A DNA stretch of 64,000 nt. It comes from Escherichia phage ECML-359. This document shows positions 4,842 to 40,777 of this stretch, piece by piece. The notes beneath the pieces were generated by a model. It did not search any database, was not told the origin of the DNA, and saw only the letters and a program-made list of their open reading frames with translations. Where the stretch lies: sequence record OL631482.1. The stretch is one strand, 5' to 3'. The translations under genes and the position numbers were made by a program. The stretch's first letter is position 1, and the number at the start of each line of letters is the position of its first letter.

Positions 4842-4867
4842 ATTATAAGTCACATATTTTAAAGCAA
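4842..4867 (-). promoter_or_regulatory. MotA-box middle promoter (tTGCTTTA, 12 nt, TATAAT) upstream of gene 39
   Basis: Minus-strand reading TTTTTGCTTTAaaatatgtgactTATAAT; box overlaps terminator T tract. Confidence 0.5.
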
Positions 4868-14885: not shown

Positions 14886-15404
14886 TTAATAACCCCGGTC
14901 CTGACGAGCGAAGTTTTCAGCATTTTTCAGGTAATACAGTTTAAAGATTTCTTCTGCTGACAGACCAAGACCATGGAACATGTTCAGAACAAAGTGCAGG
15001 ATGTCAATCATCTCAAATTTAATTTCGAGCTGGTCTTCAGGAGACAACTCATCAATACGACGATTACGGAATTCAGCATGTTGGGCTTTCCACGGTTTCC
15101 AACAACTTGAGGCTGCTTTCTCGCCATTAGACATACCCCCGAGAGAAGTCAGAAGTTCACGGAATTCGTCGTCGACATAATCTTTCTGGTTACGAAGCCA
15201 TGCAACAACATCACCTGCAGTAGCCAATTCATCTGGATGTGAGTTATATTCTGGTTTTTCAGTAGCCAGACGAACTTGCAATGATTTCTGCATATCAAGC
15301 ATAATCTGCAGCGGGTCAATACCTTTTGTAATTGCATTGTCATAAGCCAGAGCAGCTTTATCAACGCCAGCAATCAGTTGGGAACACTCGTTAAAATGAG
15401 CCAT
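14886..15404 (-). CDS. 56: MazG-like NTP pyrophosphohydrolase (gp56 position, dCTPase-like)
   Basis: ExxE...ExxD-type motifs (DEFRE, EIKFEMID); size 172 aa similar to T4 gp56. Confidence 0.55.
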   Translation of the reverse strand: MAHFNECSQLIAGVDKAALAYDNAITKGIDPLQIMLDMQKSLQVRLATEKPEYNSHPDELATAGDVVAWLRNQKDYVDDEFRELLTSLGGMSNGEKAASSCWKPWKAQHAEFRNRRIDELSPEDQLEIKFEMIDILHFVLNMFHGLGLSAEEIFKLYYLKNAENFARQDRGY

Positions 15405-15442: not shown

Positions 15443-15467
15443 ATTATATCATATTGGTTTGAAGCAT
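15443..15467 (-). promoter_or_regulatory. MotA-box middle promoter (aTGCTTCA, 11 nt, TATAAT) upstream of gene 56
   Basis: Read on minus strand. Confidence 0.5.
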
Positions 15468-15488
15468 AAATACACAGAAGGAGGATAT

Positions 15489-15686
15489 ATGCTCAAACTA
15501 TCTAGTCTAATTCAAGCCATCAAAGGCAGTCGTAAGCGAACGATTCTGGTCCTTTCGATACTCTGTTTAGTTCTACTCTGGAACTTCGTTGTTGCCCCTG
15601 TTGCATTGACACATGGTGTTATATTACCAGTCATTGCACTCGAATCAGTTGTAGATATTTTACTGGCATTAATCGGCCTTATATAG
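15489..15686 (+). CDS. plus-strand small hydrophobic protein (about 65 aa, two predicted TM helices)
   Basis: AGGAGG 4 nt before ATG; MLKLSSLIQAIKGSRKRTILVLSILCLVLLWNFVVAPVAL...; only non-overlapping plus ORF here. Confidence 0.35.
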   Translation: MLKLSSLIQAIKGSRKRTILVLSILCLVLLWNFVVAPVALTHGVILPVIALESVVDILLALIGLI

Positions 15687-15688
15687 AT

Positions 15689-15712
15689 GGAATAATGTGA
15701 ATATTATTCCAT
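15689..15712. other. perfect hairpin GGAATAAT-gtgaat-ATTATTCC
   Basis: Directly after the plus-strand small ORF stop; no clear U tract. Confidence 0.5.
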
Positions 15713-15804
15713 CGGATTTGGAAATTAACCAGTAAGAAAGACAAAAAACATCATGGGCTTTTTAGCTCTTGATGTTTTTCTGCGGAACTTACCGGAATTC
15801 CTTC

Positions 15805-16833
15805 CTAAACTTTTGCGTACTTCGAAAGTCGCATTCTCGCCATCAACCCTTGAGCAACGTTATCGGCCATATATGATTCGATTTGTTCAGGGGTTGCGCC
15901 CTCCGATTTAACCATCTCATTTATGTCTTTCGTATGCCATGGTGCATTGTCCCAGAACATAACGGCTTCACCCGCTTCAACGAGCTTCTTCATACGTTTA
16001 ATCGTATCCGGATGTCTTGGCTCGTTGTCCATTACCCATACTCGGGTTTCAGCATAAGGAACGGCTTCCAATGCTAATGTTCCACCGGTTATCGCAATGC
16101 TGTTAGGGATAAACAAACTATCAATCGGACCTTCCATTACCCACACACGTTTGCGCTCATCAATCTTGTCTACTCCGTAGACTTTGGAAGCTTCTGGGTG
16201 AGCTTTGATTGTGATATATTTTTGTGGTGCATCTTTGCGAAGAGCTCGTCCTTGGAAAGATTCGATTTCTTTTTTGCCGTTGAAGATAGGAATAACCAAG
16301 CGTGGTTCATTCGTTTCATTCTTATACGTCCCAGGATTAACGGAGTTAACTAATGCAGGCCATTTGTTTGTAAACCATAACCGGTTCCAAACATTGCTCG
16401 GAATACACCGACTTTTTACATACTTAACTATCGGATGCTCTTCTGGTAAAGTATCGATTCTTTCGCAAAAAGCAAGCTCTTCAATAACCGGAGTTTTTTC
16501 TTGTTCTTTCGGAGCTTCTGCAACTTCATTACGTTGTCGACCGAAGGCGTTTTCCTTGTACTTCTCAACCATATATTCCCGGTGCAAATCCGGCTCAAAC
16601 TCTTTTATGTATTTGCTTATATGCGTGGAGTAGTCACAGTTAAAACATTTCACGTAAACCGCACCATCAGACGGATTGGTATACGCCCAGAATCGGGCCT
16701 TGTGTGAATCTTTCTGGGAGTCACCGCAAACCTTACAACGACAGTTTGCCTTAAATGTGCTCCCGGTGACTTCTCTATAACGTGGTTGATACGATAAAGC
16801 TCTGATTGCAAATTCTCTATCAATATATGACAT
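15805..16833 (-). CDS. 61: DNA primase gp61 (342 aa)
   Basis: N-terminal zinc-binding CRCKVCGD...CFNCDY, TOPRIM-like region; T4 gp61 size. Confidence 0.9.
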   Translation of the reverse strand: MSYIDREFAIRALSYQPRYREVTGSTFKANCRCKVCGDSQKDSHKARFWAYTNPSDGAVYVKCFNCDYSTHISKYIKEFEPDLHREYMVEKYKENAFGRQRNEVAEAPKEQEKTPVIEELAFCERIDTLPEEHPIVKYVKSRCIPSNVWNRLWFTNKWPALVNSVNPGTYKNETNEPRLVIPIFNGKKEIESFQGRALRKDAPQKYITIKAHPEASKVYGVDKIDERKRVWVMEGPIDSLFIPNSIAITGGTLALEAVPYAETRVWVMDNEPRHPDTIKRMKKLVEAGEAVMFWDNAPWHTKDINEMVKSEGATPEQIESYMADNVAQGLMARMRLSKYAKV

Positions 16834-17246: not shown

Positions 17247-17615
17247 TTAACCTCGCTTCATGAAAGCATTAAAAATCTGGTCATCAATATCAGTAGGCGG
17301 TTCTTGAGATTTAACCCAGCCAGCATCCAGAATGTCATTTGCTTCAGTAGATAGCATGACCCCAATTTCAGGATTTCCGGTTATCCACGCTGCACAATCG
17401 CGTACATTCTTTTTATCAAATGGATAGCCACGAGTATCTTCATAAGGCCCATTCATTATCATAAATGAGCGAGCCTTTATGATAACGCCATCTTTAACAA
17501 TAATATAACCAATCGCCTGATTATAACGAGGCTCGCGGAATTCATAATGAGCATTACCATCATTATTTTTAACTAATTCAAAATTCAGATAAGACAAATC
17601 GCTTTGAATATACAT
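17247..17615 (-). CDS. hypothetical protein (122 aa, 61.1/61.2-like)
   Basis: C-terminus ...DDQIFNAFMKRG shared with neighbouring gene. Confidence 0.45.
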   Translation of the reverse strand: MYIQSDLSYLNFELVKNNDGNAHYEFREPRYNQAIGYIIVKDGVIIKARSFMIMNGPYEDTRGYPFDKKNVRDCAAWITGNPEIGVMLSTEANDILDAGWVKSQEPPTDIDDQIFNAFMKRG

Positions 17616-17616
17616 A

Positions 17617-18054
17617 TTAATCTCGCTTCATAAAGGCATTAAAAATTTGGTCGTCAACTGAATATACAGGGGTTTCCAGAAGTTTCAAAAGACTGTTTTT
17701 AATGTACTTACCCGGGATACCCATATTAACAATACTGTCATTCAATTCATTGTTAGGATTGATGTCTTTAAATTCAAACCCATCAAACTCAACCTTGTCA
17801 GGAATACCATCAGCGAAAAAATAAACCAATTGGTGCATTGTATTGCGCGAAAATAATTTAGACTTGACTGCAATAAGTTCTTGCCAATGGTTTAATTCTT
17901 TGTTAAGAAGCTTATGAGCAAACGTAATTCTATCATCACTATCAACAAGAAAATAACCCAGGTATTGAATTTCGTCGCTCCAAAACACCCGGTATGCCTG
18001 TGTATTTGGATTTTTACAGCGAAGTTTTTTGATAACTAAATTTCTGTTAATCAT
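17617..18054 (-). CDS. hypothetical protein (about 145 aa), paralogous C-terminus
   Basis: Ends ...VDDQIFNAFMKRD; start moved past spackle stop. Confidence 0.45.
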   Translation of the reverse strand: MINRNLVIKKLRCKNPNTQAYRVFWSDEIQYLGYFLVDSDDRITFAHKLLNKELNHWQELIAVKSKLFSRNTMHQLVYFFADGIPDKVEFDGFEFKDINPNNELNDSIVNMGIPGKYIKNSLLKLLETPVYSVDDQIFNAFMKRD

Positions 18055-18055
18055 T

Positions 18056-18349
18056 TTATTCACCTGTAACCCATTGAACAATTTTGCTATTGTCAAATGA
18101 AGCATCGCAATACAGAACATAGTTATACTGCATAACGTCACCAGAAGTCAATTTGTCAGATACTTCTTTAACCATATCAGGGCGGTCACGTTTAGTTATG
18201 TTCATAATATCAGCATAAATCTGATGTTCAACATCAGTCTGGTCAGCAGTCATAGACCACTCACAAAGGTCTTTATCAAGTCCAGCAGTAACTGGAGCTG
18301 TACCACATGATGCTACGGTAAGAATTGCCGCGATTAATAACTTTTTCAT
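18056..18349 (-). CDS. sp: spackle-like periplasmic protein (97 aa)
   Basis: Signal peptide MKKLLIAAILTVASC; T4 Sp size and 61.3 position. Confidence 0.55.
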   Translation of the reverse strand: MKKLLIAAILTVASCGTAPVTAGLDKDLCEWSMTADQTDVEHQIYADIMNITKRDRPDMVKEVSDKLTSGDVMQYNYVLYCDASFDNSKIVQWVTGE

Positions 18350-18646: not shown

Positions 18647-18850
18647 TTAAATTTCCTCAATGCGGGCATCATATTCAAAAACTTTATTGTCATTAACAAA
18701 GGCTTTAACCAGCGCATTATTCACTTCTGCATACTGCACTGTAACCCATTCAATCATATTTTGGTCACTAACATCCAGCGCGGTTTCTTTGGTAAACATA
18801 TTACCATTTTCAAACCAACCAATAAATACTACGTTCTCTAATTTATACAT
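18647..18850 (-). CDS. dmd: Dmd-like protein (67 aa)
   Basis: Position between 61.4 and gene 41; N-terminal VVFIGWFENGNMFTKE reminiscent of T4 Dmd (from memory, unverified). Confidence 0.4.
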   Translation of the reverse strand: MYKLENVVFIGWFENGNMFTKETALDVSDQNMIEWVTVQYAEVNNALVKAFVNDNKVFEYDARIEEI

Positions 18851-29359: not shown

Positions 29360-29611
29360 TTAATCAAAGTATTCATATGCGAACCAGGCATTGTGTCTGT
29401 TCGCGATTATTTTAACATATTCTTCACCGAAAGCGTTTTGCAAGTCACGTTCAGTGACAAGGTGTTCATCTTTCGAAAAGGTATTAACTAACACATACCG
29501 TTTAATTTCAGGGACAGCCAGTAAATGCTGCCCGGTTAAGAAGTCAGCCATAATAGCCTCTATTATAACATCCTTGTTTAAAGCATTATTCCATAACGGT
29601 GAATCGACCAA
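29360..29611 (-). CDS. hypothetical protein (83 aa)
   Basis: Minus ORF. Confidence 0.4.
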   Translation of the reverse strand: MVDSPLWNNALNKDVIIEAIMADFLTGQHLLAVPEIKRYVLVNTFSKDEHLVTERDLQNAFGEEYVKIIANRHNAWFAYEYFD

Positions 29612-40566: not shown

Positions 40567-40777
40567 AATAAACCCTTACCATTATTAGATAAGGGTATTT
40601 ATTAAATCTTATAAAACGCGCGGTGTAACCGTTTAAATTGACGAATCATCTTTTTAGTAGGACGAGTATACAATCCCACACAGGTGGCCATAAACTGGTC
40701 AGTAGGGCTTCCTTTGATAAGAAGTTTCCAGACCTTGTCACCGTTTAACTTTTCGGTATAGACTAATGCAGTTTTCA

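Follow-up and report, generated by a model that had tools for sequence, protein, structure and literature searches.

A conserved gene for a predicted small inner-membrane protein, probably expressed late, between genes 56 and 61 of a VR7-like T-even phage

The DNA analysed here is a stretch of 64,000 nucleotides from Escherichia phage ECML-359 (OL631482.1; the window), a VR7-like T-even phage that groups with EAWsc9 and VR7, both filed under Gaprivervirus, Tevenvirinae. Between gene 56, encoding the dCTP pyrophosphatase (gp56 dCTPase; 14886-15404, minus strand), and gene 61, encoding the DNA primase (gp61; 15805-16833, minus strand), lies a plus-strand open reading frame (15489-15686; ATG at 15489, stop codon TAG at 15684-15686) that is convergent with gene 61 and specifies a product of 65 amino acids, MLKLSSLIQAIKGSRKRTILVLSILCLVLLWNFVVAPVALTHGVILPVIALESVVDILLALIGLI. 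The interval is 98.6% identical to that of Escherichia phage EAWsc9 and 88-98% identical to those of VR7, VR20, SP18 and similar phages. A preliminary description of this DNA had reported the ORF between genes 56 and 61, a perfect AGGAGG site before it and a hairpin after it, and all three are confirmed to be present; the Shine-Dalgarno sequence AGGAGG occupies 15479-15484 (plus strand), 4 nt before the ATG. The same description called the ORF antisense-encoded, a reading that fails and is rejected here because the ORF overlaps no gene in the window.

The 65-aa protein is a member of PHROG 2024, matching the profile at E = 6.4e-26 with residues 1-65 on positions 1-65 of 65, and it is the orthologue of VR7ORF033w, RB69ORF029w, RB32ORF030w and the T4 product named 'dam.1'. 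The profile also picks up the T4 and Dhakavirus proteins, as well as four distant members. Homologues were found by tblastn in 697 phage records, T4 included, and two of the distant members used as queries added 182 and 594 records, with some overlap, from T4-like phages of Klebsiella, Citrobacter and Salmonella. A profile search of 1.84 billion representatives returned only eight clusters, all of 45-68 aa and four of them distant at approximately 30% identity; the five clusters whose contexts were examined all reside in T4-like phage genomes, and no bacterial or functionally named relative was recovered by that search. A scan of IMG/VR produced close relatives only. The earlier suggestion of a translatable gene for a small hydrophobic protein on the opposite strand is thus strongly supported by conservation, with homologues in hundreds of T-even genomes.

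The genomic position of the gene is also fixed. In T4, T6, Mosigvirus, Dhakavirus and the four distant, metagenomic lineages the homologue always lies opposite the early genes, between 56 and 61, and is convergent with the primase gene. The distant members P0077, P0078 and P0080 occupy the same 56-61 slot in T4-like contigs, with one small gene before the primase gene in lineage L023, and the 745-bp contig that carries the fourth, P0079, shows the convergent 4-nt overlap only. The stop codons of the ORF and gene 61 usually overlap in a palindromic 4-nt TTAA, which provides TAA on both strands, for example in T4 (L003, 1689-1692) and at the equivalent positions in Mosigvirus, Dhakavirus, L022 and L025. 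The T4 reference record (NC_000866.4) leaves 17,626-17,934 empty, and the homologue lies there, unannotated, at 17,738-17,938 on the plus strand. The window ORF was previously described as sitting where T4 carries dam, which holds for the 56-61 interval as a whole but not in the sense of one gene standing in for the other: T4 has both, with dam between the homologue and gene 56, and replacement of dam by the ORF is accordingly rejected. Family, size (60-68 aa), slot, orientation, conserved motif and the upstream ATAAATA and Shine-Dalgarno sequences are common to the window ORF and to T4 dam.1, RB69ORF029w, RB32ORF030w and VR7ORF033w, and the window protein shares 43-49% identity with the T4 and Mosigvirus copies. 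The two arrangements differ in that T4 has dam inserted between dam.1 and gene 56, whereas the window ORF, unlike T4 dam.1, does not overlap gene 61: between the two lie a decayed family member of the Dhakavirus type and a terminator-like hairpin.

The existence of the gene is already known, albeit catalogued as 'hypothetical'. Exact copies of the protein are annotated as GenBank 'hypothetical proteins' in close relatives, VR7ORF033w is annotated 'similar to RB32 ORF030w', the Mosigvirus copy is RB69ORF029w, and the T4 copy goes by 'dam.1' in UniRef and by T4Tp032 in the T4T record; in the T4 RefSeq entry and in MT984581 the homologue is unannotated. Other records give contradictory labels, i.e. 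'dCTP pyrophosphatase' in dhaeg (Dhakavirus, L026 3827-4027), 'putative head morphogenesis protein' in T6 (L005, AP018814, 1207-1392) and 'holin family protein' in EAWsc9, while 'holin' is also the UniRef name of the OE5505 protein. A literature search on the gene, its orthologue names, T4 Ribo-seq and T4 small proteins found no relevant paper.

Comparison of the coding sequences indicates that the ORF is a genuine, conserved gene that is under purifying selection in a fixed syntenic slot. The +1 frame is the sole frame open in all ten lineages (10/10), and Nei-Gojobori dN/dS values are 0.06-0.30 within Tequatrovirus and Mosigvirus, and 0.10-0.47 between genera. Within Gaprivervirus itself selection appears only moderately purifying (0.34-0.63), with few substitutions. 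The family accepts 3-residue deletions in the transmembrane region (NRG-P0074 and OE5505). A frameshifted copy of 56 aa occurs in phage ERS-1 (UNVERIFIED_ORG; L008 1492-1662), where either the sequence contains an error or that isolate can do without the gene.

A different explanation for the conservation would be that the ORF is untranslated and that the interval is retained solely for its cis elements, namely a middle promoter for gene 56, terminators for gene 61 and the hairpins. The interval does contain a strong minus-strand MotA-type pattern and a bidirectional terminator-like hairpin (both described below), and the annotators of fPS-65 placed a minus-strand terminator inside the 5' end of the ORF. 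In the window, however, these cis elements fall outside the coding sequence. Furthermore, synonymous sites are near saturation between lineages (pS 0.55-0.79) while the length, frame and motif of the protein persist, the Shine-Dalgarno sequence and ATG are kept in every lineage, and homologues of only ~30% identity occupy the same slot. Conservation of the family, the sole open frame, the ribosome-binding site and the dN/dS values together make it very unlikely indeed that the interval acts through cis elements only.

The preferred reading, a translated gene, is in keeping with its upstream region. All ten lineages (10/10) have GGAG, GGAGG or AGGAGG at 4-6 nt upstream of the ATG, and the window contains two occurrences of AGGAGG-N4-ATG against 0.37 expected, although a spacing of 4 nt is short, a point against this reading. 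Immediately upstream, at 15465-15472 on the plus strand, is a late-promoter-like box, CATAAATA, that matches seven of the eight bases of the T4 consensus TATAAATA (-13 to -6), with C at -13, and for which a transcription start near 15478 is predicted. The T4 late-promoter core, ATAAATA, is found at each of the 11 loci examined (11/11), 11-34 nt before the ATG, as well as in Dhakavirus, and it is kept before the ORF across lineages despite unrelated flanking sequence. The motif is depleted approximately 3-fold in the window (8 sites, against 22.4 +/- 5 expected), and the eight sites are at 2984, 14876, 17051, 40596, 52467 and 59202 on the minus strand and at 15466 and 18822 on the plus strand. 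For seven of them an ATG follows in the same orientation, those of soc (14876, minus strand) and the lysozyme gene e (59202, minus strand, AATAAATA) being among these, and the copy at 15466 is the only one on the plus strand in the 15 kb upstream. No obvious ORF follows the plus-strand site at 18822. Directly after the motif at lysozyme e (59202) and at 40596 comes a G+C-rich hairpin extending to the ribosome-binding region (CCCCTATATAAGGGGG; CCCTTA...TAAGGG), reminiscent of the masking of the ribosome-binding site that is known for T4 gene e.

The base at -13 is C in the window and C, G or A in all lineages, but never the consensus T, and for this reason the late promoter of the ORF may be weak, perhaps deliberately; otherwise the ATAAATA motif may mean something else. 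Variation at this position is tolerated among known late promoters: in T4, 32 of 50 are perfect, nine have A at -13 and the others have single deviations, and such variant promoters are used (PMC2988020), while a comparative study found the -13 position to be poorly conserved among T4-like phages (PMC1524935). Early and middle transcripts of T4 share one polarity, whereas late transcripts run either way (PMC2988020). Given this polarity and the use of variant promoters (PMC2988020, PMC1524935), a gene on the strand of the ORF would hardly be other than late. The ORF is thus probably switched on late in infection.

On the minus strand, a predicted MotA-box-type middle-promoter pattern, TGCTTCA-N11-TATAAT, spans 15443-15466 and is aimed at gene 56. 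The consensus for such promoters is established for T4. Three matches to TGCTTYA-N11-13-TATAAT were found in the window against 0.07 expected, and all of them (the others are at 4842-4866 and 29562-29585) are on the minus strand, which is the early/middle strand. The middle-promoter pattern and the late-promoter core are arranged back-to-back, with base 15466 common to both. A 9-nt complementarity between 15463-15471 and 15485-15493, which could mask the ATG in read-through RNA, was considered and judged to be weak, A-U-rich and probably due to chance.

Two hairpins lie downstream of the ORF. The first is a perfect inverted repeat at 15686-15713, the arms of which (15686-15696 and 15703-15713) are 11 nt long, 100% complementary and separated by a 6-nt loop, GTGAAT; it starts on the last base of the ORF stop codon and has a folding energy of -13.5 kcal/mol (z = -5.1). 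A perfect hairpin had been noted here before, albeit with a stem of 8 bp rather than 11 bp. The stem is A+T-rich, with G-C at three of its 11 pairs, and is followed by GGATTTGG, which is no U-tract; a terminator scan did not report this hairpin. VR20 has only a weak version of it (z = -1.6), and T4, Mosigvirus and Dhakavirus, whose ORF reaches into the gene 61 stop codon, lack it. The possibility that the first hairpin is the terminator of the gene was therefore rejected: it lacks a U-tract, is not a conserved feature of the gene and is located inside the start of a pseudogene. When compared with EAWsc9 (L001 2388-2415) the stems are identical and the 6-nt loop is reverse-complemented (GTGAAT versus ATTCAC), i.e. 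the whole palindrome is flipped between the two phages, as expected from template switching or cruciform resolution.

The second hairpin, at 15744-15779, separates the ORF from the convergent gene 61 and has the appearance of a bidirectional intrinsic terminator. Its arms are 16 nt long and 88% complementary, the stem is flanked by an A5 run at one end and by T5/T6 at the opposite end, and the stem-loop is followed by a U-tract on both strands, with the tail TTTTTCTG on the plus strand and TTTTTTGTC on the minus strand. The fold has z-scores of -4.9 (plus) and -4.2 (minus), the surrounding region has z-scores of -6.1 and -8.5, and the terminator scan reported a terminator-like site at 15755-15768 on the plus strand. 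Terminator-like hairpins of their own also follow the ORF in lineages L019 and L023, the latter having a UUCG loop and then U6.

The space between the ORF and gene 61 holds the remains of a second member of the same family. In VR20, VR25 and VR26 it contains a second ORF of 46 aa that begins MGFL(T/A)LD(V/I)FLWNLLVVPIAA...; the VR20 copy (region L011 2699-2905) matches PHROG 2024 (1.9e-17) and, like the single copy in T4, has a 4-nt overlap with the gene 61 stop. From the Shine-Dalgarno sequence onward, this region and the intact Dhakavirus gene can be aligned base by base, and the alignment reveals decay: AGGAGG has become AGGTGG and, in the window, AGATGG, TGA stands as the second codon, the loss of 2 nt shifts the frame, and a further 85 nt have been lost in the window and in EAWsc9. 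On the basis of this alignment, 15687-15804 (plus strand) is a pseudogene of a Dhakavirus-type paralogue (PHROG 2024 family), with a degenerate Shine-Dalgarno sequence, ATG-TGA, a 2-nt frameshift and an 85-nt deletion. The first hairpin is built on the vestigial start of the pseudogene, as it spans the old ribosome site and the ATG-TGA, and the second lies in its former N-terminal coding part. The second paralogue was free to decay, from which it is clear that the dose of the protein is not critical. Among all stop-to-stop segments of the window, an HMM search detected no other intact paralogue. One member of this micro-protein family has apparently displaced another in the same slot.

The arrangement of the 3' end also bears on whether a late RNA, rather than a protein, could be the main product, acting as an antisense shut-down of gene 61 or as part of a type I toxin-antitoxin-like pair. 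No terminator intervenes in T4, Mosigvirus and Dhakavirus, where the end of the ORF and the gene 61 stop overlap, and a late transcript would therefore run on antisense into 61. Such read-through is not conserved, however, since a terminator-like hairpin parts the ORF from the convergent gene in the window, L019 and L023, and purifying selection on the amino acids needs a function at the protein level. For a toxin-antitoxin pair, no sign of an antitoxin RNA was noticed, the sole minus-strand promoter pattern nearby points to gene 56, away from the ORF, and a strictly lytic phage offers no rationale for addiction. The protein resembles the type I toxins Hok, TisB and Ldr in being a small hydrophobic peptide, but its gene is a predicted phage late gene with a strong, unmasked Shine-Dalgarno sequence and is not in a bacterial or plasmid context. 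A role based on the RNA is consequently regarded as highly improbable, and a protein product is favoured.

The predicted protein has a basic N-terminus (net charge +5 over residues 1-17) followed by a secure transmembrane helix at residues ~18-41, where the best 19-residue window on the Hessa scale has a dGapp of -2.4 kcal/mol. After this helix the net charge is -2, with no K or R, and the sequence ends in ...LLALIGLI. An AlphaFold2 model made with the family alignment places helices at residues 2-13, 15-41 and 51-61 (mean pLDDT 76). The protein had previously been described as a two-helix membrane peptide, but only residues ~18-41 are secure as a transmembrane segment, and by the Hessa scale the C-terminal helix is marginal: its last 19 residues score +4.1 kcal/mol, and +4 to +13 across the family, and contain conserved acidic residues. 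Read most economically, the protein is bitopic and N-in, has a short loop in the periplasm and ends in an acidic, amphipathic helix; a helical hairpin is a possible alternative topology. Invariant or near-invariant positions are W31, N32, F/Y33, P37, G43, P47 and E/D52, with the Trp, the Gly and both Pro invariant and the Asn near-invariant. The core of the family, i.e. a basic cluster, a transmembrane helix with W-N-[F/Y/L], P, G, P and a C-terminal acidic residue, is represented in the window protein by W31, N32, F33, P37, G43, P47, E52 and D56.

Searches for known families and folds identified no characterised relative. Scans of the protein against Pfam and NCBIfam matched no family, a Pfam scan of six relatives gave sub-threshold matches only, and a profile search of PDB sequences returned nothing below E = 1. 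Foldseek searches with the AlphaFold2 model found family members only in BFVD and nothing meaningful in the PDB.

These results weigh on the proposal that the protein makes the inner membrane permeable late in infection, whether as a holin, as a pore former of the pinholin type or as a toxin that depolarises the membrane. The protein is small, hydrophobic and probably late, relatives bear 'holin' names in the databases (EAWsc9 and the OE5505 protein), and two distant members give sub-threshold holin matches: P0080 to PF11351 GTA_holin_3TM (E = 0.1, 13.6 bits against a cutoff of 24.8) and P0078 to the holin family phrog_11161 (E = 0.012, over 23 residues). The lysis genes of T4 are scattered, and distance from gene e is hence not decisive. 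On the other hand, no holin model reached threshold for any member scanned, and the 'holin' names, which lack HMM support and are contradicted by the labels that sister records give the gene, are propagated names without reproducible model support. Holins typically have a basic cytoplasmic tail, whereas the C-terminus here is hydrophobic with a net charge of -2; just one transmembrane helix is secure, and no dual-start motif is conserved, the window protein having a single Met. T-even phages, moreover, already have the holin T, with the antiholins RI and RIII. The protein may be compared with the class II holins and pinholins such as S21-68 of phage 21, a protein of ~70 aa with two transmembrane helices: these are of similar length, hydrophobic, phage-encoded and, presumably like the window protein, late. 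They differ in that there is no sequence or profile match, the basic cluster of the window protein is N-terminal with no charged C-terminal tail, and the window gene has no endolysin neighbour. A pore-forming or depolarising activity is therefore considered improbable, and the toxin or holin-like role that was suggested earlier finds no holin or toxin family in the Pfam, NCBIfam, PDB-sequence or fold searches; the earlier interpretation as a whole is partly supported.

Taken together, the comparative data make it likely that the ORF is a real, late-strand gene for a small inner-membrane protein, and a late modulator of membrane proteins is the favoured function. As proposed, gp55-RNA polymerase would start at ~15478 from CATAAATA, giving an 11-nt leader and a monocistronic mRNA of ~300 nt that would extend to the terminator-like hairpin at 15744-15779 and end at ~15779. 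The product would insert N-in, according to the positive-inside rule, with residues ~18-41 across the membrane, and the acidic amphipathic C-terminal helix (E/D at 52) would lie at the periplasmic face or be packed back as a marginal second helix. Most speculatively, W31-N32-[F/Y]33, P37, G43 and P47, in or just after the membrane helix, may form a surface for helix-helix interaction, by which the protein would act late through binding to another inner-membrane protein or to itself. Comparable regulators are found in bacteria: AcrZ, MgtS and MgrB bind larger membrane proteins via a single transmembrane helix, and the window protein is like them in size, in having a single transmembrane helix with conserved polar or aromatic residues within the bilayer and in lacking an enzymatic domain, although there is no homology and the likeness is a general one.

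The process in which such a modulator would take part can be suggested only tentatively. Control of the envelope or of lysis timing is a first guess, and one that may well prove wrong; membrane-associated head assembly and protection against membrane-acting host defences are each unlikely alternatives. More specifically, dam.1/PHROG 2024 could be an overlooked late inner-membrane factor of enterobacterial T-even phages, e.g. a third, transmembrane-level partner in the lysis clock of the holin T, RI and RIII or a membrane anchor for late assembly, although this is a doubtful proposition as it stands. If true, dam.1 would have been missed in 60 years of T4 genetics because the reference annotation omits it and tryptic proteomics would hardly detect it, since it would yield one small soluble peptide and the rest is a 48-residue hydrophobic fragment. 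T4 is a reference organism for phage biology, yet its RefSeq entry leaves a conserved gene unannotated. The fixed slot of the gene in every enterobacterial T-even lineage examined makes it a cheap and well-defined target for knockout, which could open up a possible new component of late membrane events, be it in lysis timing, assembly at the membrane or evasion of defence. The annotation of the 56-61 interval can also be corrected to comprise a middle and a late promoter set back-to-back, followed by the ORF, the decayed paralogue and a bidirectional terminator, the regulatory elements being predicted ones.

Further along the window, in the 61.1-sp region, two adjacent minus-strand ORFs (17247-17615, 122 aa, and 17617-18141, 174 aa) both end in DDQIFNAFMKR(G/D), which suggests that they are tandem paralogues or share a C-terminal module.
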